Shown here: positions 2,163 to 25,848 of the stretch, one piece after another | How positions within the stretch are numbered: position 1 is the stretch's first letter | Layout: every line of letters begins with the position of its first letter | Source of the DNA: an uncultured Rhodospirillaceae bacterium | GTDB taxonomy: Bacteria > Pseudomonadota > Alphaproteobacteria > UBA7887 | DNA length: 33,938 nucleotides | Direction: 5' to 3' | Assembly: GCA_913045505.1 (NCBI GenBank) | Contig: CAJWQN010000003.1 | Location: forward strand, 1-33,938 | Program-made: the position numbers and the translations under genes | Notes under the pieces: model-generated | The model's database searches: none | What the model was told of the DNA's origin: nothing | The model's input: only the letters and a program-made list of their open reading frames with translations

Positions 2163-4905
2163 TGGCCCGCTCCATGTCTCGAATGGCGGCGCGCAGCCGG
2201 TGCGGCAAGGCGGGCACGCGGGTGACGCGGACGCCGGTGGCGTGACGGATCGCGCCGAGGATGGCCGGCGCGGTCGGAATCAAAGCCGGCTCGCCGACGC
2301 CCTTGGCACCGAACGGTCCCAGCGGCTCGGCCTGCTCGATCAAGGTCACCGTGATCCCGGGCATGTCACAGAAGGTGGGGATCAGATAGTCGTGCAAGTT
2401 CTCGGTCCGTCCCGGCAGATATTCCTCCATCAAGGCAAGACCCAGACCCTGGGCGATGCCGCCGTGAATCTGACCTTCGGTCAAAGTTGGGTTGATCGCC
2501 CGGCCGACATCATGGGCGGCGTGGATATAGACAGGCCTGGTCATGCCCAAGGCCAGGTCCACATCGACCACCGCCATTTGGGCGGCGAAAGCGTAAGTCG
2601 CGTAGGGCGTGCCCTGGCCGTCGGCGTCGAGCGGCGTGGTCGGTGGATCGAACCGGCCCGCGCCGGCGAGCACCGCCCCATCGGCGTCCTCGGGCAGGGC
2701 GGTCAAATCGATCCGGTGCCGCGCGCCGCCGTCGGTCACGGTAAGACTTGGCCCATCGAGGTCGAGAGAAGCGTCGGCGCCGGCGTTGACCAGGCGCAAT
2801 ATCCGCTGCGTCAAGTCTTCTCCGGCAAGCTGCGCGGCGCGGCCGGAGATGAAGGTCTGGCGGGAGGCCGAAGTCTTGCCGGCATCATCCGTGCGGTCGG
2901 TGTCGCCAACCACCATCCGGACCCGATCCACCGGGACGCCCAGCGTATCGGCGACGACCTGAGCCAGGACGGTGCTCGATCCCTGGCCGATATCGACCGC
3001 GCCGTTGTAGAGCGTGAGTGTCCCATCGCGCGACAGGGCCAGACGCATGGTTGAGGGATTGCTCGGTGCCGTATTGCCGATGCCGTACCACATGCAGCCG
3101 ATGCCGACGCCGCGTCGGCTCCGGGGGTCGGCGGCGTTGAACGCCTCCGCCTCGGCCAGCGCCGCGTGCCAATCGGGGAGGAGCGCCTCCAGGCAGGCGG
3201 CGAGGCCGACACTGTCGCCGAGAACTTGCCCGGTCGCGGTCCGATCGCCGGGCCGGAGCGCGTTTCGCGATCGAATCTCGAGACGGTCGATGTTCAAGCT
3301 CGCGGCCAAATCGTCGATCAGCGCCTCATGGGCGATCGCGGTCTGGGGCACGCCGAAGCCCCGGAAGGCGCCGGCCGGGGCGGTATTGGTAAAGTAGGCC
3401 CGACCCCGCGCCCGAACATTGGCCAGCCGGTATGGCCCGCAGCCGTGGATCGGCACCCGGCCGGCAACGGTCGGCCCCCAAGACGCATAAGCCCCGGTGT
3501 CGAACACCGCATCCACGGACGCCGCCCGCAACCGGCCCTCGTCATCGGCGCCGATCCGGGCGGTGATCCGCGCGGCGTGGCGCTTGGTCGAGGCGGCCAT
3601 GCTCTCGGGCCGGTCGAGGACCCAGGCCACGGGTCTCCCCTCCAACCAGGCGGCGCGGGCGATCAGGGGCTGGACCAGCAGATCGAGCTTGCCGCCGAAG
3701 CCGCCGCCGCAAGTGGTGGGAACGATCCGCACCTGGTCCGGGGCCAAGCCCAGAACATGGGCGGTCTCGTCACGATCCATATAGGGGGTCTGGGTGCTGA
3801 CGTGGATTTCAATCCGATCGCCCGTGCGCCGCGCCCAGCCGGCCTCGGGCTCGATATAGGCGTGCTCCACGGCCGAGGTCTCGAACACGCCTTCGGCCAG
3901 GGCCGCGCAGTCGGCCCATGCGCGGTCCGCGTCACCGCTGACGACACCGCCCTCGACAAGCAGATTGCCGGGCTTGTCGGCCTGGACCCGGGGCGCATCC
4001 TTGGCCATGGCCGCGTCGAGACCATGGACGGCTTGAATCGGCTCGTAGGACACCGGCACCGAGCCCGCGTCGACCAGGGCCAGGCTGTCGCGGTCGCCGA
4101 CGAGGGCCAGCACCGCCTCGCCCCGATACCGGGCCAGGCCGTCGGCGAGCACCGGCTGATCCCTGAGTTCCGGGTAGATGCCGAAAGCGTTACAGGGCAG
4201 GTCGGCGGCGGCGAGCACCCGGACCAGGCCCGGATGGGCGGCGCGGAGTGGGCCCAGTTCGCCGACGGTGAATCGGGCCGGATAGGGGGCGCGCACCGCC
4301 TTCAGCCACAAGGCTCCGGTCGGCACCGCGTCGGCGCCGAACCGGGCTTCGCCGGTCAGCTTGGCGATGCCGTCCACCTTGACGGTCCGGGCGCCGACCG
4401 CGGCCCCGGAGGATGGCACCTTACCTCCGTCATCACCTCCCACGTCGAGCACTGCGTCGACGATTTTCCGATACCCGGTGCATCGGCACAGGACGCCGCC
4501 GAGGGCATCGGCAACTTCTTGCTCGGTGGGCGCCGGTGTGTGGCGCAACAAATCGGTGGCCGCGATCAGCAGGCCCGGCGCGCAGATGCCACATTGCGCC
4601 GCGCCGTGGCGGTGAAACGCGGCCTGGAGCGGGCCGAACTCGAGTCCCTCGACCGTGGTCACTTCGGACCCGGCGATGCGGCCCAGGGGCACCAGGCAGC
4701 TACAGAACTGGGCGCCGTCGATCAGCACCGTGCAGGCGCCACAGTCACCGGCGTCGCAGCCGACCTTGGTGCCGGTCAGGCCCAGATCGTCGCGCAACGC
4801 GGCGGCGAGCCGTTTGGCTGGCGCCGCCGCCACCGTGATCGGCCGCCCGTTGACCGTGAACGCGATGGCTTCGGCCCCGGCGATCGGGGCAGTGGCATCG
4901 TTCAT
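2155..4905 (-). CDS. Xanthine-oxidase-family molybdenum hydroxylase with fused 2x[2Fe-2S] and molybdopterin-binding domains (probable nicotinate dehydrogenase)
   Basis: Fe-S motifs GTKVGCDAGDCGAC...SC and QCGICAPG...LCRCTGY. Mo-domain motifs GGGFGGK, AFRGFG, GQG and AKGVGEP (catalytic Glu). Substrate is inferred from the adjacent hnr. Confidence 0.9.
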   Translation of the reverse strand: MNDATAPIAGAEAIAFTVNGRPITVAAAPAKRLAAALRDDLGLTGTKVGCDAGDCGACTVLIDGAQFCSCLVPLGRIAGSEVTTVEGLEFGPLQAAFHRHGAAQCGICAPGLLIAATDLLRHTPAPTEQEVADALGGVLCRCTGYRKIVDAVLDVGGDDGGKVPSSGAAVGARTVKVDGIAKLTGEARFGADAVPTGALWLKAVRAPYPARFTVGELGPLRAAHPGLVRVLAAADLPCNAFGIYPELRDQPVLADGLARYRGEAVLALVGDRDSLALVDAGSVPVSYEPIQAVHGLDAAMAKDAPRVQADKPGNLLVEGGVVSGDADRAWADCAALAEGVFETSAVEHAYIEPEAGWARRTGDRIEIHVSTQTPYMDRDETAHVLGLAPDQVRIVPTTCGGGFGGKLDLLVQPLIARAAWLEGRPVAWVLDRPESMAASTKRHAARITARIGADDEGRLRAASVDAVFDTGAYASWGPTVAGRVPIHGCGPYRLANVRARGRAYFTNTAPAGAFRGFGVPQTAIAHEALIDDLAASLNIDRLEIRSRNALRPGDRTATGQVLGDSVGLAACLEALLPDWHAALAEAEAFNAADPRSRRGVGIGCMWYGIGNTAPSNPSTMRLALSRDGTLTLYNGAVDIGQGSSTVLAQVVADTLGVPVDRVRMVVGDTDRTDDAGKTSASRQTFISGRAAQLAGEDLTQRILRLVNAGADASLDLDGPSLTVTDGGARHRIDLTALPEDADGAVLAGAGRFDPPTTPLDADGQGTPYATYAFAAQMAVVDVDLALGMTRPVYIHAAHDVGRAINPTLTEGQIHGGIAQGLGLALMEEYLPGRTENLHDYLIPTFCDMPGITVTLIEQAEPLGPFGAKGVGEPALIPTAPAILGAIRHATGVRVTRVPALPHRLRAAIRDMERANG

Positions 4906-5747
4906 GGGTTCGCCGCCAGGGATTCGAGGGTCCGGCGGATCACGGTCAGGGCGGCGTCGCGGCGATATGCGGCGCTGGCGCGCGCATCGTCGATCGGCGC
5001 CAGGGGCCCTAGATGCGAATCCTGGGCGATCCCGCCCAAGGCCGAGGTCAGCGGCTCACCTACCAGGGCCGCCTCGAGCGCGGGTAGCCGGCAGGCGAGG
5101 GGCGAGCAGGCGCCGACCGCGACCCGCGCCGCGACCACCACGCCCGCCAACGACACCTCGATCACGGCCGCGACCATGACGATCGATATCACCAGAGAGG
5201 CCCGGGCGCCCAATTTGGTGAACGCGCCATACGCGCGGGGCGCGGCCGGCTTGGGGATCAGGATCGCGGTCATCAATTGGTTGGGGCGGCGTGCGGTCCT
5301 GCGGTTGCCGGTGACGAACTGGCCCACCGGCAAGGTCTCGATGCCCCCGACCGATGACAGTTCGACACGGCCATCAAGGCTCATCATAGCCGGAATCCCG
5401 TCGGCCGCGGGCGATGCGTTGCACAAATTGCCGCACAGGGTACCGGCGTTCTGAATCTGGATGCCGCCGATCGCGGACGCGGCGCATTTGAGACCGTCGA
5501 ACAGCGCCGGCAGCGGCGCCCGCGACAGATCGGTCCAGGTCGCCAACGCGCCGACGCGCCAATGATCGCCCCGGTCCGCGATCCCGCGCAGTTCGGCCAC
5601 GGCGCTGATGTCGAGGAGGTCGCCGGGGACCGCCCGGCCGACATGGGCCGGATAGACGTCGGTGCCGCCAGCGATGACGGTGGCGGTGGCGCGGTCTAGC
5701 GCCGCCAGCGCCTCGGATAGTTTTGTTGGCCGTGCGTAGCCGACCAT
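4902..5747 (-). CDS. Molybdenum hydroxylase FAD-binding subunit (CoxM/XdhB/NdhF type)
   Basis: IAGGTD, IQNAGTLCGNLCNASPAADG and PIDDARASAAYRR motifs. Start moved to ATG 5747, downstream of GGAGG at 5765-5761. ATGA overlap with the next gene. Confidence 0.9.
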   Translation of the reverse strand: MVGYARPTKLSEALAALDRATATVIAGGTDVYPAHVGRAVPGDLLDISAVAELRGIADRGDHWRVGALATWTDLSRAPLPALFDGLKCAASAIGGIQIQNAGTLCGNLCNASPAADGIPAMMSLDGRVELSSVGGIETLPVGQFVTGNRRTARRPNQLMTAILIPKPAAPRAYGAFTKLGARASLVISIVMVAAVIEVSLAGVVVAARVAVGACSPLACRLPALEAALVGEPLTSALGGIAQDSHLGPLAPIDDARASAAYRRDAALTVIRRTLESLAANP

Positions 5748-5772
5748 GGCTGCAAGCGAGCCTCCGCCACAA

Positions 5773-5794
5773 GATCGTTTGTACACATACGATC
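5773..5794. promoter_or_regulatory. 22-bp imperfect palindrome, putative MarR (NicR-like) operator
   Basis: GATCGTTTGTACACATACGATC matches its reverse complement at 18 of 22 positions. It is AT-rich and lies just upstream of the RBS of the first nicotinate gene. Confidence 0.6.
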
Positions 5795-10537: not shown

Positions 10538-12210
10538 TGATCCGAGCCGTATCCGCCTTGATCGGAGGCGGCTTGCTGCTCGGCATCGCCCATCTGGCGG
10601 CTCTGCCGCCCTGGGAAGGTTTCGACGAGACCGCCCATTACGCCTATATCCAGTATCTGGCCGACGTCCATGACCTGCCGCCGCGCGCCACCGCGGTGCT
10701 ATCGACCGACGTCGAGGCCTTTGAAGGCATCGGGCCGACCCGCTATAAGCCCCAGCCTCCGTTCGACCCCTTCGGTACCTACAGCTACCGGACGTTCTTC
10801 GCCGCGCCGGACGACGTGATCGTCCAGGCCGGGACCTATCTCAACCAGCCCCCGCCCGAACCCCGCCGCTACGTGCCCGCCCGGCGCGCCAATTGGCAGT
10901 CGCAGCACCCGCCGCTCTATTACCTGCTCATGGCGCCGTTGTACCTGGCCACCAAGGGTATGAACTGGGTCGATCATCTGCTCCTGGTGCGGATGGCGTC
11001 CTATCTCATGGCCTGTGCCGCCCTCGTCGTCGGAGTCCATGGCGCCCATTTGGCGACCAACCGCTACCGACTGATTCCGGATCGGATCGCGCCGCGCGCG
11101 CGCCATGGCGGCGTGGTGCTCGGGATCGCGCTCTGGCCGGTGCTGTTTCCGATGTGGATTCCGGAGATGGCCCGGCTCGGCAACGATTCGCTGTCGGCGT
11201 TGATCGTCGCGCTGGTCTGGCTGAGGCTGGTGCATCTTCTCGGGCATGGCGATCGGGCGCGCGACTATGCGTGGCTGGGGGTGATACTCGGCTGCGGGCT
11301 GCTGACCAAGGTCCTGTTCGCGCCGATCGCGTTCGGCGTTGGCGTGTTCCTCGCGGCCCGCGCCTGGCGCCGGCTGTCGTGGCACCGCGCGGGCACGGTG
11401 CTGATGGTGTTGGCGGTGCTGGTCGCGGTCACGGTTGGGATTGGCGGCTGGTGGTACGTGGGCAATTTCCTCGACACCGGCTCTTTTGTCGGCAGCACCC
11501 ATTTCGTTCGTCTCGGCCAGGCGGGCGGCGTGGCCATGGTCCTGGACACCCCGGTCACTGCCGGGCGCCTGCTGGAAGGCCTGGCGGTGATCGCCATGAC
11601 CTTCGTTTGGGGCGGCACCTGGTCGTTCGCATGGCCGAATTACGCGGCCATGGTGGGCCTCGCCCTGGTACCGTTGGTGCTGGCCGGCGCCTATGGGATC
11701 GGGCTCCGCCGCGCCCGGATCGATTCCCTGACCTGGCTGCCGGTGTTCGTGCTGGTGCCGGTCGCGATCGCCATCGTCATCAACCTGTTCGTGAAAATGG
11801 CGCTCTACCGGGAGGGGTTCAACGTTCCGGGCTGGTACCTTCATTTGCTGGCGGTGCCGCTGGGCGCCGCGCTCGGGATCGGCATCGCCGCGTGCTGGCC
11901 GGCGCGCTGGTTTCGACTCAGCCTGTCGATCCTGGGCGGCTATGCCCTGGCGTTCGCGGCCTGGGCGAGCGCGAGCCAGGTCTTGCTGTACACCGGATTT
12001 GCGATCAAGGCCGGTGATCGGGGCGCGTTCCGGCTGGCGCCGGAGCTGCCCAGCATTGGCGATTTGGTGGCCCAGGTCGGCGAACGCCTGGCCGTGATCG
12101 CCTCGCCCAATTTGGCCGCGGCGGCGTTCGCGGCCGGGGCGGTGCTTCTGGTGGTCGGTTCGGGTTTGGCCTGGCGCGGCTATGCGACCTTGGAATCGGA
12201 TTCGACGTAG
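10537..12210 (+). CDS. GT-C-fold integral membrane glycosyltransferase (ArnT/PMT/DUF2142-like)
   Basis: Start at ATG 10537 (TGATG coupling). First-loop acidic motif PPWEGFDETAHYAY, then QHPPLYY, LGNDSL, GLLTK and WWYVGN. More than 10 TM segments. Confidence 0.75.
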   Translation: MIRAVSALIGGGLLLGIAHLAALPPWEGFDETAHYAYIQYLADVHDLPPRATAVLSTDVEAFEGIGPTRYKPQPPFDPFGTYSYRTFFAAPDDVIVQAGTYLNQPPPEPRRYVPARRANWQSQHPPLYYLLMAPLYLATKGMNWVDHLLLVRMASYLMACAALVVGVHGAHLATNRYRLIPDRIAPRARHGGVVLGIALWPVLFPMWIPEMARLGNDSLSALIVALVWLRLVHLLGHGDRARDYAWLGVILGCGLLTKVLFAPIAFGVGVFLAARAWRRLSWHRAGTVLMVLAVLVAVTVGIGGWWYVGNFLDTGSFVGSTHFVRLGQAGGVAMVLDTPVTAGRLLEGLAVIAMTFVWGGTWSFAWPNYAAMVGLALVPLVLAGAYGIGLRRARIDSLTWLPVFVLVPVAIAIVINLFVKMALYREGFNVPGWYLHLLAVPLGAALGIGIAACWPARWFRLSLSILGGYALAFAAWASASQVLLYTGFAIKAGDRGAFRLAPELPSIGDLVAQVGERLAVIASPNLAAAAFAAGAVLLVVGSGLAWRGYATLESDST

Positions 12211-15200
12211 CGGCTCAACTCCTCGGCCACCGACGCGGCGTCGCGGTCGCGGTTGAGGCCCTTGAAGAGTTCGATCGCCTCCTCGAATTTCCGCTCGGGC
12301 TTCTTGCCCTCCAGAATCAACAACTGAGCTTCGAGCCGGGCCGCCTCGGCCAAATCGACCGCCCGGTCGCGTTCGGTGGCGATGGTGCGCGCCCGGACCA
12401 GATGGTCACGGGCGGCGGCCCCGTCCCCCTTGCGGACATAGACCGTGCACAAGGCCAGTTCGTTGGCCAGGATCTTGGTCTCGAGCCCCAACTCGCGGTG
12501 CATGCGCATGGCGCCCAGAAGCGCGCTTTCGGCCTCGTCCAGCCGGTCCAGGTCGATATAGCACCGACCCTTCAGCATCGCCGCCGACCCGGCACCGAAC
12601 AGGTTGCCGATCCGATCCATGGTCTCGAACGCCTTGTCGAAATAGTCCAGCGCCTCCTCCAATTCGTCGCGCTTGCGGTGGAGGTAGCCCATCGACAGGT
12701 AGACGTTGCCGCTTCGCCGCTTGTTGCCCATTTCGATGGTGAGCTCGAGACTTCGCCGGTTGAACTCGAGCGCCTTTTCGAGGTCGCCCATGTGCTCGAA
12801 GACCACGGCCAAATTGTTGCACACCTGGGCGGTTTGCTCGGTCGCCTGCTGGGCCTCGAAAATCTCCAACGCCCGTTCGGCCTTTTCGACCGCTTCCTCG
12901 TGCTGGCCGATCTGGTTCAGAACCCAACTCTGATTCATCATCAGCAGGCCGGCCTCGATGGTATCCGGATGATCGGCGAGCAGCGCCGAGGCCTGTTCGT
13001 AGACTTCGATCGCCTGGTCCTTCGAGCCCAGCTTCTCCTCGATACGACCGATGTTGCGCATCGCATCGGCTTTGCGCAGGTCGTCGTCGATCAATTCGAT
13101 CGCCTGACGCCAGGATTGAATCGCCCCATCCAGATCGCCGAGCAATTCCTGGGTATCCGAATAGGCAATGTAGATATCCTGGAGCGCGGTCGCGGGATGG
13201 GCCAGACCCTGCCCGACCTCGAGCGCTTCTTGGAAATATTTCGCGGCGTTCTGATTGGCATAGGTGGCCTTGGCCTTGAAGCCGCTTTTCACCAGGTATT
13301 CGAAGGTTCGCTCGTCATCGTCGGCAAGCCGATAATGCTCGGCCAGCACTTCGAAATGATCTTCCAGGCGGGCGCCGTAAAGCGCCTCCATCTCGCGGGC
13401 GACGATCTGATGCAATTCCTTCCGCTTCTTGAGCAGCATGGTCGAATAGACCGCTTCCTGAATCAGGACGTTGCGGAAGCTGTATTCGATCTCGGGGAAC
13501 GAACTCGACTCGAAAATCAGCCCCATGTCGGCCAGCTGGCTGAGTTTGTCGTCGATGTCGGCCAAGGTGACCAGCCGCTGAATCAGGGCCTGCTTGAACA
13601 CCGGCCCGACCACGGAGGCGGTGTGCAAGATATCCTTCAGCCCGCTTTGCAGCTTGTCGATGCGGGCGATGATGATGCCCTGGATCGAACTCGGAATCGC
13701 GATCTGGTCGAGATCCTTGGCGATGCGGATCTCGCCATCGCCGACCTTCTCGACCACGCCGTCGTCGAGCAAGCTGCGGACAATTTCCTCGATGTAGAGC
13801 GGATTGCCCTCGGCGCGGCCGCGGACCAGCTCCAACACCGCGTCGGCAACGGTTTCGCAGCCCAACAATTGCCCGACCAATTTATCGGATTCGGCGGCGG
13901 TCAACCGTTCGAACGTGATCTGGGTGCAACCGGCGCCGAGCGCCTTTTCCGCGATTAGCGGCAATTTGTCGGACGCGTGCTCCTTGACCGGGCGCATCAG
14001 CACCAGCATCATCACCGGATCGTCCTTGAGCGCCTCGAACAAATAGGCGAGCATCTCGACCGAGGTGTTGTCGGCGTGGTGCAGGTTCTCCAGCACCAGC
14101 AACAGCGGCTTTGCCCTGGCCAAATTCTTGAACAACCAGGCGACCGCCCTGAAGGTCGACATCTTCAGTTCCTGAGCGTCCATTTCATCGACCGGAACGT
14201 CGAACTGCTCGGCCAACTGAAGGCCCAGGATGGCGCCGATGAACACCACGGCCTCGCGCGCCTCCGAATCCAGCGCCTCCGGGTCGAGGTGCAGCAGCAA
14301 CGGCAGATTCTTGGCGATCTTCGCGGCCATGAAGCCCGGCAGGTCTTCCGAATCGATGTCGCACAGGTTCTTGACGATGTCGGCGAACACGTAATAGCTG
14401 GTGGTCTGGCCGAACGAGGGGCACATCCCCTCGATGACCTGAATATCGCCTTCCTTGAGCCGGCCCTTGAGTTCGGCCTGGACCCGGCTCTTGCCGATTC
14501 CGGGGTCCGAGATCAGAAACACCGCCTGACCCTGTTGGTCGACCAGCCATTGGGCGCATTGGTCGAGGGTCTTGAGTTCCTGGTCGCGCCCGACCAGCGG
14601 TGCCGCCACCGCGCCGGCCTTGCGGGCCTGGCCCTTCAGGCTTCGGGCCTTGACCACCTCGTAGACCGCGACCGGATCTTTCTTGCCCTTGACCTTGATC
14701 GGCTCATGGGCGGTGAAGTCGAACAGGCTTCGGATCAGATTGTGGGTGTAACTCGAGATGAAAATCTGTCCGGTTCCGGCGATCGATTCGAGTCGCGAGG
14801 CCAGATTCACGGTGTCGCCCATCACCGTGTAGTCCATCTTCTGATCGGAGCCGACGCCGCCTGCGATGACCATGCCGGAATTGATACCGATATGCAGGGT
14901 CAGGGGCTTCTCGAGCTTGATCGGCAAATCGTCGTTGTAGTGCTCGAGATCCTTGCGCATGTCGAGGGCCGCGCGCACCGCCAGTTCGGGATCGTTCTCA
15001 TGGGTGATCGGGGCGCCGAAGATGGCCATCACGCAATCGCCGATGAACTTGTCGACATAGCCTTCGTAGCGGACCACCGTATCGGCCATCAGCTTCAGGC
15101 AGCCATTCATGATCGTGGTCACGTCCTCGGGATCGAGCTTTTCGCTCATCGCCGTGAAGCCGGAGATGTCGGCGAACAACACCGTGACGTTCTTGCGCTC

Positions 15201-15455
15201 GGACTCGATCTCCTGTTCGGCGCCGGCCGGGGCCAGCGCCGGGGCGCCCGCGGAGGGGCGCGCGCCATCGGCCGGGAACGGTGGCAGGGCCGTTCCCGAC
15301 CGGTGATGAATGCGCGCGCCGCAACCGGCGCAATATCTGTCGCCCTCGACCACGGCCGCGCTGCATCGCAGACAGAACAAATACAGGGCGGCACCGCAGC
15401 CGGTGCAGAACTTGGCTTCGTTCCGGTTGTCGCAACCGCAATCAGAACACTTCAC
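12180..15455 (-). CDS. Class III adenylate cyclase with N-terminal double zinc ribbon, STAND/AAA ATPase and C-terminal TPR repeats
   Basis: Four CxxC pairs at the N-terminus. Cyclase motifs FADISGFT, DKFIGDCVMAIF and YTVMGDTVNLASRLE. LVGRDQEL, Walker A PGIGKS, GNPLYIEE and IARIDKL, followed by TPR helices. Confidence 0.93.
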   Translation of the reverse strand: MKCSDCGCDNRNEAKFCTGCGAALYLFCLRCSAAVVEGDRYCAGCGARIHHRSGTALPPFPADGARPSAGAPALAPAGAEQEIESERKNVTVLFADISGFTAMSEKLDPEDVTTIMNGCLKLMADTVVRYEGYVDKFIGDCVMAIFGAPITHENDPELAVRAALDMRKDLEHYNDDLPIKLEKPLTLHIGINSGMVIAGGVGSDQKMDYTVMGDTVNLASRLESIAGTGQIFISSYTHNLIRSLFDFTAHEPIKVKGKKDPVAVYEVVKARSLKGQARKAGAVAAPLVGRDQELKTLDQCAQWLVDQQGQAVFLISDPGIGKSRVQAELKGRLKEGDIQVIEGMCPSFGQTTSYYVFADIVKNLCDIDSEDLPGFMAAKIAKNLPLLLHLDPEALDSEAREAVVFIGAILGLQLAEQFDVPVDEMDAQELKMSTFRAVAWLFKNLARAKPLLLVLENLHHADNTSVEMLAYLFEALKDDPVMMLVLMRPVKEHASDKLPLIAEKALGAGCTQITFERLTAAESDKLVGQLLGCETVADAVLELVRGRAEGNPLYIEEIVRSLLDDGVVEKVGDGEIRIAKDLDQIAIPSSIQGIIIARIDKLQSGLKDILHTASVVGPVFKQALIQRLVTLADIDDKLSQLADMGLIFESSSFPEIEYSFRNVLIQEAVYSTMLLKKRKELHQIVAREMEALYGARLEDHFEVLAEHYRLADDDERTFEYLVKSGFKAKATYANQNAAKYFQEALEVGQGLAHPATALQDIYIAYSDTQELLGDLDGAIQSWRQAIELIDDDLRKADAMRNIGRIEEKLGSKDQAIEVYEQASALLADHPDTIEAGLLMMNQSWVLNQIGQHEEAVEKAERALEIFEAQQATEQTAQVCNNLAVVFEHMGDLEKALEFNRRSLELTIEMGNKRRSGNVYLSMGYLHRKRDELEEALDYFDKAFETMDRIGNLFGAGSAAMLKGRCYIDLDRLDEAESALLGAMRMHRELGLETKILANELALCTVYVRKGDGAAARDHLVRARTIATERDRAVDLAEAARLEAQLLILEGKKPERKFEEAIELFKGLNRDRDAASVAEELSRYVESDSKVA

Positions 15456-19074: not shown

Positions 19075-19671
19075 GTGACCGAAGACAACCAAGACCTGCT
19101 GCCGTTCCGCTTGTCGATTTGCGGCCTCGACGAGCTGGCCGCGCTCGCCGGCGCCGGGATCAGCCACGTGGTTTCGATCCTGGACCCGGAATGGCCCGAT
19201 CCGGAGGCGTTTGCGGCCTATCCGGATCACCGGCGCGAAACGTTCCGGTTCGATGACGTGATATACGAGCGGCCCGGCTACGTGTGGCCGCGCCGGGCCG
19301 ATATCGAGAACATCCTCCGGTTCGCCGGCCGGCTGCCGGGCGAGGCGGTGCACCACCTTCTGATTCACTGCCACGCCGGTGTTTCGCGCTCGACCGCGGC
19401 GGCGGTGATCGTGATGGCGGCGCTGAACGGGGGCCGGGAAGCGGAGATGTTCGACCTGATCGACGGCTTGCGGCCCCGAAGCTGGCCCAACAGCCTGATG
19501 ATCGGCCTCGCCGACGAGATGCTCGACCGCGACGGCGCGCTGCTCGGGGCCATGCGCGCCCACCACGCCCGCGTCGCCGCCCGCCACCCGGACCTGGCCG
19601 AAATCATCCGCCTCCACGGCCGCGCCCACGAAGTCCCGGGGTTGGCCCAGCCCCCTACACCTTCGGCTTGA
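19075..19671 (+). CDS. Cys-dependent protein-tyrosine/dual-specificity phosphatase-like protein
   Basis: CX5R loop [13 protein letters not shown], plus [12 protein letters not shown] and WPN. GTG start follows GAGGAG. Confidence 0.88.
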
Positions 19672-20053
19672 GCGATAATGCCCCGGAGTTGAGGCAGTAG
19701 CGGAGGCCGGTGGGGGCGGGGCCGTCTTCGAACACGTGGCCCAAATGGGTGTCGCAGCGGCTGCACAGGACCTCGGTGCGGATCATGCCGTGACTGGTGT
19801 CGGTCTCGGTCGCGACAATCTCGGGCGCGATCGGCTGGAAGAAGCTCGGCCAGCCGGTGCCGGAATCATATTTGGTCCCCGAGTCGAACAAGGCCTGGCC
19901 GCAGCCCGCGCACAGATAGGTGCCGGAGGTCTTGGTGTTCCAATAGGCGCCGGAGAACGCGGGCTCGGTGCCGTGCTGGCGGCAGATCGCGTATTGCTCT
20001 GGGGTCAGGGCCTGGCGCCACTCGGCGTTGGTCTTGGTGACTTTTTCGGTCAT
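19655..20053 (-). CDS. msrB: Peptide-methionine (R)-S-oxide reductase
   Basis: GTEPAFSG, CxxC pairs CAGC and [25 protein letters not shown] and RYCLNS. ATG 20053 follows GAAGGAG. Confidence 0.97.
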
Positions 20054-20064
20054 CGCCGACTCCT

Positions 20065-20733
20065 TCAATGGCTGATCACGAAGCTCGAGAACCGGACCGG
20101 CAGGATTTCGCGGGTGTGGCTGCGCCCGCTCGGGTCCTTCTCGACCAGAATCAACTGCTGGGCGTCCTCGATCCCGGCCGGGATCACCATCCGCCCGCCG
20201 GGCTTGAGCTGCTCGATCAGGGCGGGCGGAATCAGCTTGGGCGCGGCGGTGACCATGATCTTGTCGAACGGCGCATGGTCCGCCCAGCCATGGGCGCCGT
20301 CGCCGATTCGAATTGAGATGTTGCGGTAGCCCATCTTGCGATGTCGATGTTTGGCCTCCTCGGCCAGTTCGGGGAAGATCTCGACGGTGTAGACCTGATC
20401 GGCGAGCTCGGCCAGGATCGCCGACTGGTAGCCGAGGCCGGTGCCGATCTCGGCCACCGTGTCATCGGGCGCCAACTCAAGAAGATCGGTCATCAGGGCG
20501 ACGATGAACGGCTGCGATATGGTCTTGCCGCAACCGATCGGCAACGGCGAATCGGCATAGGCGTATTTGCGCATCTCGGTGGGCACGAATTCGTGGCGCG
20601 GGACCTTGGCCAGCGCGTCGATCACGGTCTGGTCGAAGTACGGGCGGCCGGTCTCGTCCGCGACCATGCCGGCATGGGCCTTGATCTCGACGATCATCTC
20701 CCGGCGCAGCACGGCGAAATCGGAATCGTTCAT
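20065..20733 (-). CDS. pcm: Protein-L-isoaspartate(D-aspartate) O-methyltransferase
   Basis: [43 protein letters not shown] and [11 protein letters not shown]. Confidence 0.95.
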
Positions 20734-20871: not shown

Positions 20872-21789
20872 ATGCTGGCGAAATTCATCGACTGTCCCCA
20901 GTTCTTGGCCGACCTCTACGGCCCCGATTTGCGGCGCATCGTTCCCGACCTGGTGGTCAATGTCGGCGACCCCTCGGAAGCCGAGGCGCTGGCCCTGCTC
21001 GCCGATTGCGGGGTGGTCGTGAACGACCATACCCGGCTGAGCGCGGCGATGTTGGCGGCCTGCCCGGATTTGAAGGCGATCGTGTTCATGGGCACCGGTG
21101 CGTCGAGCTATGTCGATATGGACGCCGCCGAGCGGCTCGGGATTCGGGTGCGCACGATCAGCGGCTACGGCGACCGGACGGTCGCCGAACATGCGGTGGC
21201 GTTGATGTTCGCCGCCGCCCGCAAGGTCGCCGAGATGGACCGGGCGTTGCGCGGGGGCATCTGGGAGACCCGCGACAGTGTCGAGCTGGCCGGCAAGACC
21301 CTGGGCGTGATCGGCACCGGCGGTATCGGCCGGGCGATGGCGGAGCTGGGCGCCGGCCTCGGCATGCGGGTGATCGCCTGGAACCGCTCGGGTCTGCCGG
21401 CGGGCGTGCCGGCCCAGGCCTCGGGCCTGGACGCGCTGGTTGCCGAGGCCGACGTGATCTCCCTCCATCTCGCGCTGAACGAGGAGACCGAGGGCCTGAT
21501 CGGGAGCGACCGCATCGCGCTGATGGGTCCGGGGACGATCCTGGTCAACACCGCCCGCGGCGCCCTGATCGACGAGCCGGCGCTGATCGAGGCGCTGGCC
21601 GCGGGGCGCATCCGCCATGCCGCGCTCGACGTGTTCGCGGCCGAGCCGCTGGCCGCCGATCATCCCCTTCTCGCGCTCGACAACGTGACCCTCACCCCCC
21701 ACGCCGGCTTCATGACCGCCGAGGCCTCGGCGCGCCTGCTCGAAATGGCCCTGAACCTGGTCGCCGAAGAGCGCGCGGCGGCGGGTTGA
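20872..21789 (+). CDS. D-isomer-specific 2-hydroxyacid dehydrogenase family protein
   Basis: TVAEHA, Rossmann GVIGTGGIG, and the Arg/Glu/His triad in NTARG, LDVFAAEP and TPHAG. Confidence 0.92.
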   Translation: MLAKFIDCPQFLADLYGPDLRRIVPDLVVNVGDPSEAEALALLADCGVVVNDHTRLSAAMLAACPDLKAIVFMGTGASSYVDMDAAERLGIRVRTISGYGDRTVAEHAVALMFAAARKVAEMDRALRGGIWETRDSVELAGKTLGVIGTGGIGRAMAELGAGLGMRVIAWNRSGLPAGVPAQASGLDALVAEADVISLHLALNEETEGLIGSDRIALMGPGTILVNTARGALIDEPALIEALAAGRIRHAALDVFAAEPLAADHPLLALDNVTLTPHAGFMTAEASARLLEMALNLVAEERAAAG

Positions 21790-21798
21790 GCCGATAGG

Positions 21799-23016
21799 TC
21801 ACTCTTCGATCGTGAACCTCAGATGCCCGTGCGCCTGGCGGAGGGCGGCCTCGACCGTGGCCGGGTCGGCGGCATGGGCGAAGATGAAACCCAGATATTT
21901 GCGCCCCTCGGGCAGGGGCACCAGGTTCTCGCCGATCGGAATGGTGATCGTGACATCACCGATGCCGGCGACGGCGCGCGCTCGGCCGAGGCCGTCGATC
22001 GCCTTCAGGGTGCCGGCGACGGGGATCGGGATCATCATCACCCCGCCGGCGTCGCGCTCGCGGATCAGGTTGTCCTGGGGCAGGCCGAGGGCGTGGCGCA
22101 GGATCACGTCTTCGAGAGAGATGCCGGCGCCGAAACGGAGCGCCCGCGCGCACAGGCCCCCGATCGAGCGCGCGGCCATGTCGACCACCCAGAGGTGGTC
22201 GCGGTCATGGCGCAATTCGGCATGGATCGGACCATGATGGAGGCCAATGGCGGCGGCGGCCCGCTCGGTGGCGGCGGCGATCCGCGCTTGCATCCGTGCC
22301 ACCAGGCGTGACGGCGTGACGTAGAGGGTTTCCTCGAAATAAGGACCGATAAGGGGATCGGGCTTGTCGAACAGGGCCAGTACCCGCAAATGCCCGGCGT
22401 CCATCAAACCTTCCACGGCCACTTCCTGGCCGGGAAGATAGTCCTCGATTAGAATCCGCAGTGGATCGTCCGGCCCGAGGAGGCCCGAGACGCGCGCGAA
22501 GGCGGCTTCGAATCCGGCCCGGTCGTCGGCGCGAATCACGCCCCGGCCGCCGGCCATGGCGAGCGGCTTGAGCACGCAGGGATAGGTCTGGGCGCGGGCC
22601 ACCGACCGCGCGTCCTCGGTGGCGCCGACCAGGCGAAAACCCGGTGACGGCAACCCGCCGGCGGCCAGCGCGGCGCGCAGGAGATGCTTGTCCCGGGTCG
22701 CCCGGACCGCCTCGATGCCATTGTGGCGAAGGCCCAGCGCCGCCGCCGCGTGGGCGGCGAGAACCACGCCCCCATCATCGACCGCGACCACCGCATCGAA
22801 CAGGCGGTTGCCGGCATGGGCGGCAATTTGCCGGGCACCGGCCTTTCCGTCGGCGAAGTCGAACCGCGCCACCCCACCGTCGGAGAATGCTTCCGAGGCC
22901 TGAGCCCGATCGGTCCCGACCACGACTTCGACCTCGACCGGCAGTCGGCCGGCGGCGGCCATGAAATCGGATGCGCGGTAGGTGTCCGACGGCACCAGCA
23001 ACAGCAAGCGTTTCAT
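21799..23016 (-). CDS. ATP-grasp enzyme, L-amino-acid-ligase-like architecture
   Basis: TRDKHLLR, YPCVLKPLAMAGGRGV, LIEDYLPGQE, GPIHAELR and AARSIGG, with a C-terminal YLGFIFA domain. Confidence 0.88.
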   Translation of the reverse strand: MKRLLLLVPSDTYRASDFMAAAGRLPVEVEVVVGTDRAQASEAFSDGGVARFDFADGKAGARQIAAHAGNRLFDAVVAVDDGGVVLAAHAAAALGLRHNGIEAVRATRDKHLLRAALAAGGLPSPGFRLVGATEDARSVARAQTYPCVLKPLAMAGGRGVIRADDRAGFEAAFARVSGLLGPDDPLRILIEDYLPGQEVAVEGLMDAGHLRVLALFDKPDPLIGPYFEETLYVTPSRLVARMQARIAAATERAAAAIGLHHGPIHAELRHDRDHLWVVDMAARSIGGLCARALRFGAGISLEDVILRHALGLPQDNLIRERDAGGVMMIPIPVAGTLKAIDGLGRARAVAGIGDVTITIPIGENLVPLPEGRKYLGFIFAHAADPATVEAALRQAHGHLRFTIEE

Positions 23017-23053
23017 GATGGGCCTTGGGTGAGGCCGATTGTGGCGACAGTGA

Positions 23054-24460
23054 TCAAACGGCGGCGCGCTGGGCCGCGGTCGGCTCGGCGCAGCAGTACC
23101 AGGGCTCGCTCATGCGCGGCACCGGCGCCCGAGACCGAGCCGGCGGCAACCAGTCCGGCACCGGGTCGAGCCCACCGGCGCGGCGGGTGAGGGCGACGAT
23201 CTTGGCGAAGGTCCCGGCACGGTCTTCGCCGATCCCCTCGGCTCCCTCGACCGCCGCCGCGACAGCCTGGCTCAGGGCCTCGACTCGCGGGTCGGGGTTG
23301 CGCCAGGGATAACTCAATGCCTCCGGCTGGTAGGGGCCCAGGCCGCGGCGCAACGCGGCCAAGCCGCGCAGACGCGAGCCCTGGGGCACCAGCAGCCGGA
23401 TCGCGAGCTGGATCGGGGCGACCTCGGCGATCAGGTCGAGAGCCGCGATCTCGCGCAAGAGATCGTGGTAGCCCTCGAGAGTTGTCCAAGGCGTGAACGG
23501 AATGAAGGTCGGCGACAGGGTGAGCCCGGCGTCGCGGGCAAGCGCGACAGCGCGCAGGAAATCGACCCGGCTGTGGCCCTTGTCGAGCAGGGCCAGCACC
23601 TCGTCGTCGAGCGATTCGACGGCGGTGGTGACCAACAGGCATCCGGTCTCGACCAGGGTCCGGAGATGGCGCCGCTGGCGGAGCAAATGCTCGACCTTGA
23701 TGGTGGCGTCGTAAGTGATTTCGGGATCGGCCGCGTGCACGGCCCGGACCAGGCGCAGGGCGTGACCGACGCCGTTGAAGAAATCCGGATCGCCGAAGCT
23801 GATGTGTCGGGCTCCGGCGGCGATTTGGGTCGCGATATCGGCCATCACCACGTCGTGCTGGACGACGAAGAACCGGCCGTCATAGACCGGCACCACCGGG
23901 CAGTGCCGGCACCGGTGCTTGCAGCCCCGGCTGGCCTCGGTATAGCCGCTCCGGCGGTGCTCGTCTCCGATCTGAAGAGTCGCGTAGTTGTCGAGGCCGG
24001 GCAGGCCGGCGCGCTCGGGCATCCGGAACCGTTGCTTGGCGAGCGCGACCACTGGCGCCACCGTCGGCGCCTCGGATATCACCTGCCCGTCGTTGGCGAC
24101 CAACCGGTGATAAAGATCGACCAATGGGGTCTCGAATTCGCCGCCAATAATCGACTGCCCGCCCAGGTCCCGCAGATAGCCGGCGTTCATCGGCGCGTAG
24201 AGCCCGTAAAAGCAGAGATGGGCGCCGGGATTGAGGTCGCGGATGCGCGCGATCACGTCGCCGGCGAGTCGGGTCGCGGTGTGCATGGGCAGGTGGATCG
24301 CGATCATCCCGGCGGCGGCCACGGCCGCCGCATCGAGGTCTTCGACCGCGAGGTCGTTGCAGGTCACCCGCGCCCCGGCCTGGCGCAGCCACGCCGCGGG
24401 CGAGGCCAGCCCGAACGGCTGGTGGCCCAGATCGTAGGTGGACAGCAGCAGGACGTTCAT
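23054..24460 (-). CDS. CUAEP/CCAEP-tail radical SAM protein (Cys form) with an N-terminal B12-binding-like domain
   Basis: CxxxCxxC motif SRGCKHRCRHCP. N-terminus LLSTYDLGHQPFGLAS...HLPMHTATR; also FGDPDFFN and FIPFTPWT. C-terminal EPWYCCAEP encoded by TGC TGC at 23095-23090. ATG 24460 preferred over TTG 24472. Confidence 0.88.
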   Translation of the reverse strand: MNVLLLSTYDLGHQPFGLASPAAWLRQAGARVTCNDLAVEDLDAAAVAAAGMIAIHLPMHTATRLAGDVIARIRDLNPGAHLCFYGLYAPMNAGYLRDLGGQSIIGGEFETPLVDLYHRLVANDGQVISEAPTVAPVVALAKQRFRMPERAGLPGLDNYATLQIGDEHRRSGYTEASRGCKHRCRHCPVVPVYDGRFFVVQHDVVMADIATQIAAGARHISFGDPDFFNGVGHALRLVRAVHAADPEITYDATIKVEHLLRQRRHLRTLVETGCLLVTTAVESLDDEVLALLDKGHSRVDFLRAVALARDAGLTLSPTFIPFTPWTTLEGYHDLLREIAALDLIAEVAPIQLAIRLLVPQGSRLRGLAALRRGLGPYQPEALSYPWRNPDPRVEALSQAVAAAVEGAEGIGEDRAGTFAKIVALTRRAGGLDPVPDWLPPARSRAPVPRMSEPWYCCAEPTAAQRAAV

Positions 24461-24494
24461 CGGCCGTCCCAATGGCGGCGCGTCGTCGGTGCCG

Positions 24495-25337
24495 CTATTT
24501 CGAGGGCTGATAATAGGGGTTCGTGCCGCCCGCGTGATCGGTCACGTCCAGCACATGAACGATGTCCGGCGCGGCGCGCTTGATTTCGCCCTCGACCCCC
24601 TGTTTGAGGGTCACGTCGGCCATGCCGCAGCCCTGGCAGCCGCCCTCGAGCCGGATGTAGACGGTGTCGTCGGTGACGTCGACCAGGGCGATATGGCCGC
24701 CATGCATGGCCACCGAGGGGTTGATCCGCTGATCGAGCACGTCGCGGACCGCGAGGCCGGTCGGTGTCTCCAGGCCCGGCTTCGGGATCAGGTCGCGGTG
24801 GTCGATGACCTGCTCGACCTCGGCGATGTAGTGGCGGAGCATGTTCTCGATCCCGCTCCTCAGCCCGAACGCGGCGCCGCTCATTTCGAGCGCCACCTTG
24901 CCCTCGGAGAAGCCGTGGAACACCGCTTCGCCGCCGTTCTGGGCGAGAGCCGGGCGGACCCGGGAGTCCAGCAAGTCCTTGATCTGGGCGACCAGCTCGG
25001 CGTCTTCGGGGGCGAAATCCTCCTCGATTTGGGAGTCATCGGCGCCGGAGGCGGCGGTCACGGCCGGCGCGCCGGACATGAAATGCTCCATGATCGCGCT
25101 CAGAATCGCCGGCTTGAGCACTTGCCACTCCGTGTCCCCGGCCTTGGTGACGCTCACCAGATCGACCCCCAACGTGACCGCGACCACATTCTCGATCTCG
25201 AACAGCCGCGCCGCCAGCGGCGAGCGCGCGCTCGATTCGCGGTCCGGAAAACTGACGGTTCCGGCGTCCATGACCGTGCGCCCGGGCAGGAATTTGAGCA
25301 CCGCCGGGTCGGCGTCGGCCTCGGTCTGAATAAACAT
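24495..25337 (-). CDS. NifU/NfuA-family Fe-S cluster carrier: Nfu N-terminal domain plus two NifU domains
   Basis: Nfu N-terminal domain MFIQTE...LKFLPG...SPLAARLF...WQVLKPAIL. First NifU domain RVRPALAQNGG has no CxxC. Second is INPSVAMHGG...GGCQGC...DVTDHAGGTNPYY. GGAGG RBS at 25347-25343. Confidence 0.9.
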   Translation of the reverse strand: MFIQTEADADPAVLKFLPGRTVMDAGTVSFPDRESSARSPLAARLFEIENVVAVTLGVDLVSVTKAGDTEWQVLKPAILSAIMEHFMSGAPAVTAASGADDSQIEEDFAPEDAELVAQIKDLLDSRVRPALAQNGGEAVFHGFSEGKVALEMSGAAFGLRSGIENMLRHYIAEVEQVIDHRDLIPKPGLETPTGLAVRDVLDQRINPSVAMHGGHIALVDVTDDTVYIRLEGGCQGCGMADVTLKQGVEGEIKRAAPDIVHVLDVTDHAGGTNPYYQPSK

Positions 25338-25373
25338 GGCGACCTCCATCGCGGGGATTTGGTCTCAAGGTCT

Positions 25374-25402
25374 ATAATCGGGGCTTCCGCGCCCAGTTCA
25401 AC
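25374..25402 (-). promoter_or_regulatory. Possible RpoH (sigma-32)-type promoter for the nfu operon
   Basis: Minus strand reads GTTGAA-CTGGGCGCGGAAG-CCCCGATTAT, resembling TTGAA-N13..17-CCCCATNT, about 37 nt upstream of the nfu ATG. Confidence 0.35.
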
Positions 25403-25419
25403 CCCAAGCCCGCCGACGA

Positions 25420-25848
25420 TCAGAAAATCGGATCCGATCGCGTCGCCGTGGTCAGGAATTCGAGCAGGTTGCCGTCGGGATCTCGGAAATATACGGATTG
25501 GCCCCACACACCGTCGGCCGCCGGACGCGGCACCGGGCCTTCGATGATTTCCACCCCGCGATCGGTCAAATAATCCACCGCTGCCTCGATATCGGCGTCC
25601 CAGCGAAAACACAGGTCGACGGAGCCTGATTCCAAACGGTCGGCCACTATATATGCCGGATCGTCGAGTTTTTGCAGATTGACCACGGCGCCGCCCAGCA
25701 CGACCTGCATGACCTTGACCTTTCCTTCGCGGTAAGCGGATTCGAACGGCAAGGCACCACCCAGGACATCCCGATAGAAAACAATCGAGCGTTCGATATC
25801 GCTTGCCATGATAACGACGTGATCGATGTTGCGAATCGGGATGGCCAC
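25420..25848 (-). CDS. VOC (glyoxalase/bleomycin resistance) family protein
   Basis: IDHVVIMASDIERSIVFYRDVLG, GSVDLCF and SVYFRDPDGNLLE. Confidence 0.9.
   Translation of the reverse strand: MAIPIRNIDHVVIMASDIERSIVFYRDVLGGALPFESAYREGKVKVMQVVLGGAVVNLQKLDDPAYIVADRLESGSVDLCFRWDADIEAAVDYLTDRGVEIIEGPVPRPAADGVWGQSVYFRDPDGNLLEFLTTATRSDPIF

Follow-up and report, generated by a model that had tools for sequence, protein, structure and literature searches.

To our knowledge, ArsL is so far the only radical S-adenosylmethionine (SAM) enzyme with a CX3CX2C motif shown to make a 3-amino-3-carboxypropyl species. ArsL cleaves SAM to methylthioadenosine (MTA) and this species, not to 5'-deoxyadenosine (5'-dA), and it keeps its Fe/S content when its C-terminal tail is removed (bioRxiv 10.1101/2024.02.01.577332). 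The three cysteines of that tail bind As(III) (bioRxiv 10.1101/2024.02.01.577332; available part of bioRxiv 10.64898/2026.04.29.721666). A second family, the CUAEP/CCAEP-tail radical SAM (seleno)proteins, is called uncharacterised and is noted for its rare CU motif in the accessible portion of Haft's 2022 preprint, the only mention of the family in the literature searched (main texts, not supplements), and no description of its pairing with a ligase or of an iron-sulfur (Fe-S) gene context was found there. Here, a member of this family is described from a 33,938-nucleotide stretch of contig CAJWQN010000003.1 (the window), which belongs to a metagenome-assembled genome (3.05 Mb, 86.6% complete) of an uncultured Rhodospirillaceae bacterium. 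Its gene stands in a three-gene set with genes for an Nfu-type Fe-S carrier and an ATP-grasp ligase of the L-amino-acid-ligase type (Table 1). An earlier reading of the DNA letters alone (the original prediction) had named these genes, had given the chemistry of ArsL and its As(III)-binding tail as the two ArsL preprints give them and the uncharacterised status of the family as Haft gives it, and had proposed that the radical SAM enzyme builds an amino acid, possibly one containing a metalloid or chalcogen, which the ligase joins into a small peptide.

The three genes lie on the minus strand, and the gaps between nfu, the radical SAM gene and the ATP-grasp gene are 34 and 37 bp, as originally read; NCBIfam and Pfam agree on all three identities. 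Because gaps of this size are too small to hold one, the operon contains no open reading frame (ORF) for a precursor peptide, another point on which the original prediction was right. The arrangement cannot be ascribed to chance, because 62 of 80 loci from several phyla show an ATP-grasp gene next to the radical SAM gene; nfu, radical SAM and ATP-grasp form a real operon. Very probably, the radical SAM enzyme and the ligase constitute a conserved module, with the ligase as its more basal member, which resides in Fe-S loci and is coupled in some lineages to a special Nfu. As to what the module does, the explanation that best covers the observations, put forward tentatively and rated somewhat below an even chance, is a two-enzyme system that would apply ArsL-like chemistry to sulfur or selenium species and would be tied to Fe-S homeostasis; taken by itself, the chemical part of this explanation is doubtful.

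For the neighbourhood sample, one genome per prokaryote species was scanned and the best 80 of 502 radical SAM relatives were kept, their loci belonging by record title to Alphaproteobacteria, Acidobacteriota, Gemmatimonadota, Latescibacterota, Calditrichota, Verrucomicrobiota and Eremiobacterota. The 62 adjacent ligase matches were obtained with tblastn, and several of the remaining 18 loci are cut by contig ends. Among 23 genomes of the window's order, both genes are present, and adjacent, in the same nine, and neither is present in the other 14. In an even sample of 301 Alphaproteobacteria, the radical SAM gene was found in seven genomes, all seven of which have a ligase orthologue scoring above 515 bits. 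Terriglobia, the class of an Acidoferrales carrier (class assigned by record titles), were represented by 201 genomes: the ligase is present in 74 of 74 radical SAM genomes and occurs alone in two, while 125 genomes have neither gene. These tallies include three unpublished genomes (G401, G423 and G432) with both genes each; without them, the radical SAM gene and the ligase are found in 71 and 73 of 198, respectively. Coordinates read by hand place the two genes at most 1.5 kb apart on one contig in 59 of the 74 Terriglobia pairs. All three Bryobacteraceae with an unlinked radical SAM gene have one ligase orthologue elsewhere (47-50% identity), and among metagenome loci chosen by their ligase, with at least 1.6 kb on each side, 25 of 27 contain the radical SAM gene. 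In total, the ligase was found in 93 of 93 radical SAM genomes, and the co-occurrence on which the original prediction had staked its proposal was thus borne out. The two enzymes are inherited together across several phyla. A predicted complex of the two proteins (score 0.00, mark 0.32) counts neither for nor against their binding. Apparent fusions of the two enzymes were discarded: three (P0125, P0128, P0139) contain a shifted-frame reading of part of the radical SAM C-terminus, two (P0133, P0134) have arginine-rich junk at the junction, and all five were judged frameshift or gene-call artefacts that most likely stem from frameshifted or mis-assembled contigs.

The pairing is asymmetric. A radical SAM gene without the ligase was seen in none of the 93 genomes, whereas seven genomes have the ligase but no radical SAM gene: five of 12 alphaproteobacterial carriers and two Terriglobia, the ligase of one of the latter being a contig-edge fragment. 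Completeness of the five alphaproteobacterial genomes is 88, 100, 86, 98 and 98%, and a lenient search detected no radical SAM family member in four of them and a 67-amino-acid (aa) 3' remnant in the fifth. Because the ligase occurs alone and the reverse was not seen, a radical SAM enzyme that is the sole source of the ligase substrate does not fit, and the simple order of the original prediction, in which the radical SAM enzyme makes an amino acid that the ligase then consumes, can be at most part of the answer. This pattern implies that the ligase acts first or that its substrate also has other sources, and the ligase is the more basal partner of the module.

Two loci preserve pieces of the radical SAM gene beside a ligase. 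In genome G055 (L090:5499-5702, minus strand), a 67-aa ORF adjoining the ligase corresponds to the last ~65 radical SAM residues, with an intact SEPWYCCAEP and no upstream trace of the rest; it is probably a deletion remnant and may alternatively be a stand-alone tail peptide. In genome G373 (C6:536030-538520), a decayed radical SAM copy spans model positions 1-249 and contains three TGA codons and one TAA codon, while the ligase match next to it covers model positions 5-356 of 422 and is free of internal stops; here the radical SAM gene may be undergoing loss with retention of the ligase.

When all neighbouring ORFs of the 80 loci were clustered and the clusters named with Pfam, an Fe-S biogenesis or iron-trafficking gene was present in 54 loci, and in 70 if the Fe-S enzymes NadA, MoaA, aconitase and NuoB-like are also counted. 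YggX, an Fe(2+)-trafficking protein, is encoded in 27 loci, Nfu in 26 and Rrf2 in 19; the SUF genes comprise SufS (11), SufU (10), a DUF59-type Fe-S assembly protein resembling SufT (10) and SufB/D (9), and the Fe-S enzymes MoaA (16), NadA (12), NuoB-like (10) and aconitase (9). In Alphaproteobacteria, the order is nfu, radical SAM, ligase. In Latescibacterota and Gemmatimonadota, a suf operon is followed by Rrf2, NuoB-like and NfuA-like genes and then by the radical SAM gene, with the ligase convergent, and in Acidobacteriota YggX, often with Rrf2 or DUF169, is found beside the pair. Where the pair is split, in Bryobacteraceae, the radical SAM gene lies by nadA and moaA and the ligase stays beside yggX. 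The module sits in or beside Fe-S biogenesis and iron-trafficking genes (Nfu/NfuA, SUF, YggX, Rrf2), the set differing by phylum, and the argument from context draws its force from the recruitment of different Fe-S genes in different phyla.

DUF169 genes adjoin the module in five Bryobacterales loci, and a DUF169 gene precedes the unlinked radical SAM gene in L099:4189-7925 and L100:4221-6434 (genomes G182 and G326), with IS3-family transposase genes (Pfam) following in L099. The third-position GC content (GC3) of the DUF169 and radical SAM genes is 0.62-0.66, below that of most neighbouring ORFs (~0.7-0.9); the radical SAM gene was apparently acquired by recent horizontal transfer, when these genomes already possessed Nfu and the ligase. 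Within the searched literature, DUF169 was met only in a figure legend, beside Nitrospina hgcA.

The Nfu protein of the window departs from the usual form. Its first part is Nfu_N, its second a degenerate NifU domain without CxxC, and its third an NfuA-type NifU domain that carries CQGC and has TDHAxGxNPYYQxxK as its conserved tail (PF01106, 127.1 bits). It resembles NfuA/Nfu carriers in having Nfu_N and a NifU domain with CxxC, and its C-terminal domain aligns to NfuA model positions 109-190 of 190, but it remains below the cut-off of the NfuA equivalog TIGR03341 (103.1 versus 269 bits), the N-terminus being Nfu_N plus degenerate NifU and not a degenerate A-type domain. In an alignment, the resident NifU domain reads EMSGA..AFGL where a relative has EMHGACSGCPSS, so that its CxxC has been lost, and the added second NifU domain carries GGCQGCGM. 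The same added domain occurs in the NfuA-like proteins encoded ahead of the radical SAM gene in Latescibacterota, Gemmatimonadota and Calditrichota.

The distribution of this three-domain form follows that of the module within the window's order. All 23 genomes of the order encode an Nfu of full length, joined in one of them by a second match that is weak and partial (E 2e-13), and in exactly the nine module-bearing genomes the sole Nfu is the 275-280-aa form beside the radical SAM gene; in the 14 module-less genomes, it is the ordinary 188-aa form, which matches residues 1-177 only. In the window's own genome, the operon nfu is the only NifU-domain gene found. The long Nfu also lies directly upstream of the ligase in seven of eight alphaproteobacterial loci that lack the radical SAM gene or belong to genomes with that gene in another place, in one of them following sufBD-sufS-sufU-sufT (sufT being the DUF59 gene). 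Since this adjacency persists without the radical SAM gene, Nfu and the ligase form the tightest pair in Alphaproteobacteria, where the presence of the ligase goes with the remodelled Nfu. These observations, and the placement of the whole module among Fe-S genes, contradict the earlier view of Nfu as a mere supplier of the radical SAM cluster. At another locus (L007:2060-3847), two long-form Nfu genes stand in tandem upstream of the pair, and Rrf2, SufB/D-family genes and sufS are located downstream of the ligase.

The proximity to Fe-S genes might be regulatory or historical, the pair being hungry for Fe-S clusters and therefore co-regulated with, or parked beside, the assembly genes, and its product having nothing to do with Fe-S homeostasis. 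The Rrf2 genes at 19 of the 80 loci and the occurrence of NadA, MoaA and aconitase among the neighbours would suit such an arrangement, and an Fe-S function is argued from gene context. Against it stand the independent recruitment of different Fe-S genes in different phyla, the change in Nfu architecture exactly where the module is present, and the fact that the gene that stays beside Nfu or YggX is the ligase, which needs no cluster. On balance, a purely regulatory or historical link is quite unlikely.

The radical SAM protein scores 619.7 bits against NF040546 (rSAM_CUAEP, 'CUAEP/CCAEP-tail radical SAM (seleno)protein' in NCBIfam; cut-off 500, E 3e-186, model positions 1-467 of 468). Both hallmarks of that family, the CX3CX2C motif and the C-terminal C[C/U]AEP, are present, and the columns concerned show no variation among the 80 members (the window and 79 loci, the set used for all tail and column counts). 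The protein ends in EPWYCCAEPTAAQRAAV, with CCAEP eight residues before the end; across the family, the tail is constant in length and closes with a hydrophobic residue. CCAEP is found in 36 of the 80 members; in the other 44, a TGA codon in frame precedes AEPT..Q.A.V and gives CUAEP with selenocysteine at position 457, in agreement with the original prediction of selenocysteine in some members. In the Terriglobia sample, 56 of the 74 radical SAM matches, counted by hand, contain exactly one TGA. Among the positions that 95% or more of the members conserve are C180, C184, C187, C274, C456 and C/U457. An N-terminal Rossmann-like domain is followed by the radical SAM core and the conserved tail, and the AlphaFold2 model has a mean predicted local distance difference test (pLDDT) of 88.8, a predicted template-modelling score (pTM) of 0.90 and a tail pLDDT of ~82. 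The family is large: all 8000 scored candidates in a collection of 5.8 billion proteins match at E <= 1e-10, the best 120 of them with 57-66% identity. In Thermomicrobium roseum (L088:8935-10371 in NC_011961.1), the annotated protein WP_012643191.1 ends in ...TESWFC, one residue short of the second Cys/Sec position, which suggests a selenoprotein truncated in annotation; its gene neighbours encode a pyridoxal-phosphate-dependent aminotransferase and a major facilitator superfamily (MFS) transporter.

The kinship to ArsL asserted in the original prediction was supported when family hidden Markov models were searched. The ArsL model NF040542 is the second-best match (259.6 bits, E 6e-77, residues 3-405), although it stays below its cut-off of 450 bits, and identity to annotated ArsL/RCCLKC-tail genes is 31-32.5% over a full-length alignment. 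The two enzymes share the three-part architecture, CX3CX2C, several other motifs and a Cys-rich C-terminal tail. They differ in the tail itself, which in ArsL is RCCLKC with three arsenite-binding cysteines and in the window family EPWYC[C/U]AEP plus ~8 residues with two Cys/Sec; the window enzyme has CCAEPTAAQRAAV in this place and lacks RCCLKC. Further differences are the linker, which is ~40 residues longer in the window family, and C274, which lies in a TGCL motif where the annotated ArsL of a Pseudomonas amygdali plasmid has LGLA. Both families thus offer three thiol or selenol groups beyond the cluster ligands, differently placed. By sequence, the CUAEP/CCAEP-tail family is a homologue of ArsL and a sister family to it, not ArsL. 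The NCBIfam model of the family was already known, and what is new here is an ArsL-like enzyme with a different tail, partner and context: ArsL is encoded among arsQ, arsM and other ars resistance genes, in contrast to the Fe-S biogenesis and ATP-grasp genes around the window family.

That difference in context bears on the suggestion that the radical SAM enzyme builds a metalloid amino acid (with arsenic, antimony or a similar element) on its vicinal-thiol tail, to be made into a 'Trojan horse' peptide antimetabolite by the ligase. Homology to ArsL, whose Cys tail binds As(III), speaks for a metalloid, as does the link drawn in the accessible portion of Haft's preprint between the rare CU motif and organometallic biochemistry, and the nearest named relatives of the ligase are dipeptide-antibiotic ligases (BacD and DdaF in NCBIfam, BL00235 and BacD in the PDB). 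The 80 loci and the whole window were searched with seven proteins from a genuine arsinothricin/ars island: ArsC, the arsenic transporter (ArsB/Acr3), ArsR, ArsQ, ArsM, the aquaporin and ArsN1 had matches in 0 of these 81 stretches at E <= 1e-5, although the real arsL lies within an ars island. The ArsL query matched all 81, as expected of a homologue. Among the clustered neighbours of the 80 loci, no exporter or self-resistance gene recurs. A metalloid has only the homology in its favour. Moreover, the module is present in 74 of the 201 sampled Terriglobia and adjoins housekeeping SUF and Nfu genes, its radical SAM tail carries two Cys/Sec against the three of ArsL, the third invariant cysteine being in the barrel, and the ligase exists without the radical SAM enzyme. 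A metalloid antimetabolite is therefore highly improbable. From the peptide proposal of the original prediction, the homology to ArsL, the type of ligase and the absence of a precursor peptide are supported; the metalloid and the simple enzyme order are not.

A different reading starts from the fold. The closest solved structures found with Foldseek are AprD4 (PDB 6fd2, template-modelling score 0.64, E 1e-16), then TsrM, OxsB, MgmA, CysS and MiaB, with RimO and lipoyl synthase also among the matches; in a PDB sequence search, the sole match was Elp3 (E 5e-5). AprD4 and the class-B-like TsrM and OxsB share with the window enzyme a Rossmann-like domain at the N-terminus and a radical SAM barrel after it, but identity to them is 14-18% and they have no CC/CU tail. 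AprD4 has a B12-like domain that is not known to bind cobalamin. In the window enzyme, the B12-binding domain PF02310, the mark of cobalamin-dependent (class B) radical SAM enzymes, is below threshold (22.5 versus 32.1 bits). The enzyme could accordingly generate a canonical 5'-deoxyadenosyl radical and use C274, C456 and C/U457 to hold an auxiliary Fe-S cluster or as a redox relay, carrying out a sulfur insertion or redox step on the ligase product, with an Nfu-type carrier rebuilding the consumed cluster as is reported for lipoyl synthase. E. coli NfuA and LipA are a case of an Nfu carrier that serves an Fe/S-consuming radical SAM enzyme. The kinship of the fold to AprD4, MiaB, RimO and lipoyl synthase, the three extra invariant Cys/Sec, the link of an NfuA-type domain to the module in four phyla, and the service of Nfu carriers to radical SAM enzymes that use up Fe/S (available parts of PMC9585516 and PMC12501116) are all compatible with this. 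The closest characterised relative, however, is ArsL, which keeps its Fe/S without the tail and makes MTA instead of 5'-dA; selenocysteine would be an unusual cluster ligand, and the carriers in Terriglobia are mostly without Nfu. Canonical radical chemistry is thus considered unlikely, though less so than a metalloid product.

The ATP-grasp protein has the L-amino-acid-ligase fold, with matches to PF13535 (ATP-grasp_4, 95.7 bits) and PF18603 (LAL_C2, 58.4 bits). Its closest solved structure is the L-amino acid ligase BL00235 (PDB 3vot, E 7e-32, residues 72-395), followed by BacD (E 1.6e-13); none of the NCBIfam equivalog cut-offs is reached (BacD 64 versus 850 bits, DdaF 40 versus 840), and a search of the ESM Atlas returned unnamed ATP-grasp/LAL clusters only. 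BL00235, BacD/YwfE and DdaF share the ATP-grasp_4 and LAL_C2 domains with it, and differ in that ligases of their type are tied to antibiotic clusters and the window group to radical SAM and Nfu/YggX. In several relatives, the ligase bears additional domains. A sulfotransferase domain (PF13469/PF00685) is fused to its N-terminus in L101:14-2185 and L102:7001-9145 and in P0123, P0124, P0126, P0129 and P0130, all real fusions, and in L102 the fused gene adjoins a CUAEP-family radical SAM gene, a second sulfur-related hint. In P0122, a single protein of 1176 aa, the ligase is linked with a part that resembles sulfite reductase.

RimK and LysX are ATP-grasp enzymes that add amino acids to protein carboxylates. 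The ligase could likewise add an amino acid to a protein carboxylate, for example at the conserved Nfu C-terminus or the tail of the radical SAM enzyme itself, and the radical SAM enzyme would then modify the same target. Such a protein-modifying pair would account for the continued adjacency of ligase and long Nfu at loci lacking the radical SAM gene, for the conserved C-terminal TDHAxGxNPYYQxxK of the NfuA-type domain and for the fixed length and hydrophobic last residue of the radical SAM tail, and the RimK and LysX models do match the ligase weakly (E 2.5e-6 and 3.5e-6). The ligase is nonetheless far closer to ligases of free amino acids (LAL_C2; BL00235 at E 7e-32), and Terriglobia have the pair without Nfu. 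Protein modification by this pair has a very small likelihood.

The tentatively preferred explanation, ArsL-like chemistry on a sulfur or selenium species in the service of Fe-S homeostasis, would proceed as follows. By analogy with ArsL, the radical SAM enzyme would use ArsL-type SAM cleavage and pass the 3-amino-3-carboxypropyl group to a soft nucleophile held by Cys274, Cys456 and Cys/Sec457, with the vicinal Cys/Sec as the resolving residue. The gene context makes arsenic a less favoured nucleophile than a sulfur or selenium species that the Fe-S machinery would mobilise. The ATP-grasp enzyme would form an amide bond in the same process, either to make the acceptor compound of the radical SAM enzyme or to consume a homocysteine-like amino acid that also has other sources, and the product would serve Fe-S or iron homeostasis and not act as an antibiotic. 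A more specific form of this proposal is very unlikely: the radical SAM protein would be a second non-canonical CX3CX2C enzyme that transfers the 3-amino-3-carboxypropyl group to a persulfide or perselenide delivered by SUF/Nfu to Cys274, Cys456 and Cys/Sec457, forming a C-S or C-Se bond, and together with the ligase it would yield a homocysteine-type thiol or selenol peptide, a new small-molecule cofactor that takes part in the trafficking or repair of Fe-S clusters and occurs widely among bacteria of soil and sea.

Several considerations weigh against the preferred explanation or reduce its generality. The choice of MTA over 5'-dA is inferred from homology to ArsL, and the solved structures nearest in fold belong to canonical 5'-dA or cobalamin enzymes (AprD4, TsrM, OxsB, MiaB); a sulfur or selenium substrate is suggested only by gene context and the analogy with the ArsL tail. 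The figure of 54 of 80 loci stands without a background rate for the proximity of random genes to Fe-S genes. The pairing counts come from related genomes, which are non-independent samples, and for that reason no statistics were attached to them. A possible exception to the pairing is the T. roseum family member (45.7% identity), which has aminotransferase and MFS transporter neighbours; no ligase was found on the 918-kb replicon that carries it (chromosome not searched). In Terriglobia, an NfuA-type domain was found in 23 of 201 genomes, distributed as 2 of 76 ligase carriers versus 21 of 125 others; the link to Nfu is lineage-specific, because the module carriers of this class are mostly without the domain, and the NfuA-type domain was rejected as a universal third partner, being rare in Terriglobia and located there mostly outside module-bearing genomes. 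Finally, inspection by eye of 16 upstream regions (14 alphaproteobacterial loci plus the window), for which no motif finder was run, revealed no conserved operator upstream of nfu.

The CUAEP/CCAEP-tail family is far commoner than its sister ArsL, being present in 74 of 201 sampled Terriglobia and represented by at least 8000 database candidates at E <= 1e-10, and over half of the members counted (44 of 80) are selenoproteins. The ligase partner, the setting in Fe-S loci and the remodelled Nfu together narrow the likely product of the module, which offers enzymologists a defined system open to experiment and may bring to light a new accessory branch of Fe-S or iron homeostasis or new carbon-chalcogen bond chemistry. 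As to habitat, nine public sequencing runs contain at least half of the sampled words of the stretch (the tenth contains 0.48), and eight of the nine are labelled seawater or marine metagenome; two of them are possible sources of the window. Exact contigs of 150-155 nucleotides from metatranscriptome libraries X14 and X15 correspond to positions 23406-23555 (radical SAM gene) and 25022-25176 (nfu), which were counted neither as expression nor as an operon transcript, since carry-over of DNA is possible.

Table 1. Features of the nfu, radical SAM and ATP-grasp operon and its immediate surroundings, in window positions.
Feature	Position	Strand	Remarks
Nfu gene	24495..25337	-	280 aa; ORF extends to 25349; start placed at the conserved MFIQTE at 25337, preceded by GGAGG
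CCAEP-tail radical SAM gene	23054..24460	-	468 aa; ORF to 24472; start placed at the conserved MNVLLL at 24460
L-amino-acid-ligase-type ATP-grasp gene	21799..23016	-	405 aa; ATP-grasp_4 + LAL_C2
CQGC cluster-binding motif, C-terminal NfuA-type domain of Nfu	24627..24638	-	residues 234-237
CKHRCRHC (CX3CX2C), radical SAM [4Fe-4S] cluster motif	23900..23923	-	C180, C184, C187; invariant in 80/80 members
Cys274, barrel cysteine of the radical SAM protein	23639..23641	-	invariant in the family; not in ArsL
EPWYCCAEP tail motif of the radical SAM protein	23081..23107	-	C456, C457; followed by TAAQRAAV and stop
Intergenic region upstream of nfu	25338..25419	-	GGAGG ribosome-binding site; promoter-like stretch TTGAAC-N17-ATTATA, read by eye
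Glyoxalase-family VOC gene, upstream of the operon	25420-25848		conserved neighbour in 0/80 loci
2-Hydroxyacid dehydrogenase gene, convergent to the operon	20872-21789		conserved neighbour in 0/80 loci

The TTGAAC-N17-ATTATA stretch upstream of nfu was not listed by a consensus promoter scan, and a promoter there is putative. Like the VOC and 2-hydroxyacid dehydrogenase genes, the DOPA dioxygenase, protein-L-isoaspartate O-methyltransferase (PCMT) and MsrB genes of the window recur in 0 of the 80 loci. The last two, both protein-repair genes, overlap at 19658-20733 (minus strand; MsrB with a SelR domain), 1 kb downstream of the operon and past the convergent dehydrogenase gene. Farther away, on the same strand, a molybdenum hydroxylase set (723-5786), with a divergent MarR regulator, encodes an FAD subunit and then a fused 2Fe-2S and molybdenum cofactor subunit of 916 aa; after it comes a Cys-rich protein of 480 aa that matches no Pfam family. 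Also on the minus strand, a gene at 12183-15455 encodes a 1091-aa protein that combines a zinc ribbon, an adenylate/guanylate cyclase domain, an AAA ATPase and TPR repeats.

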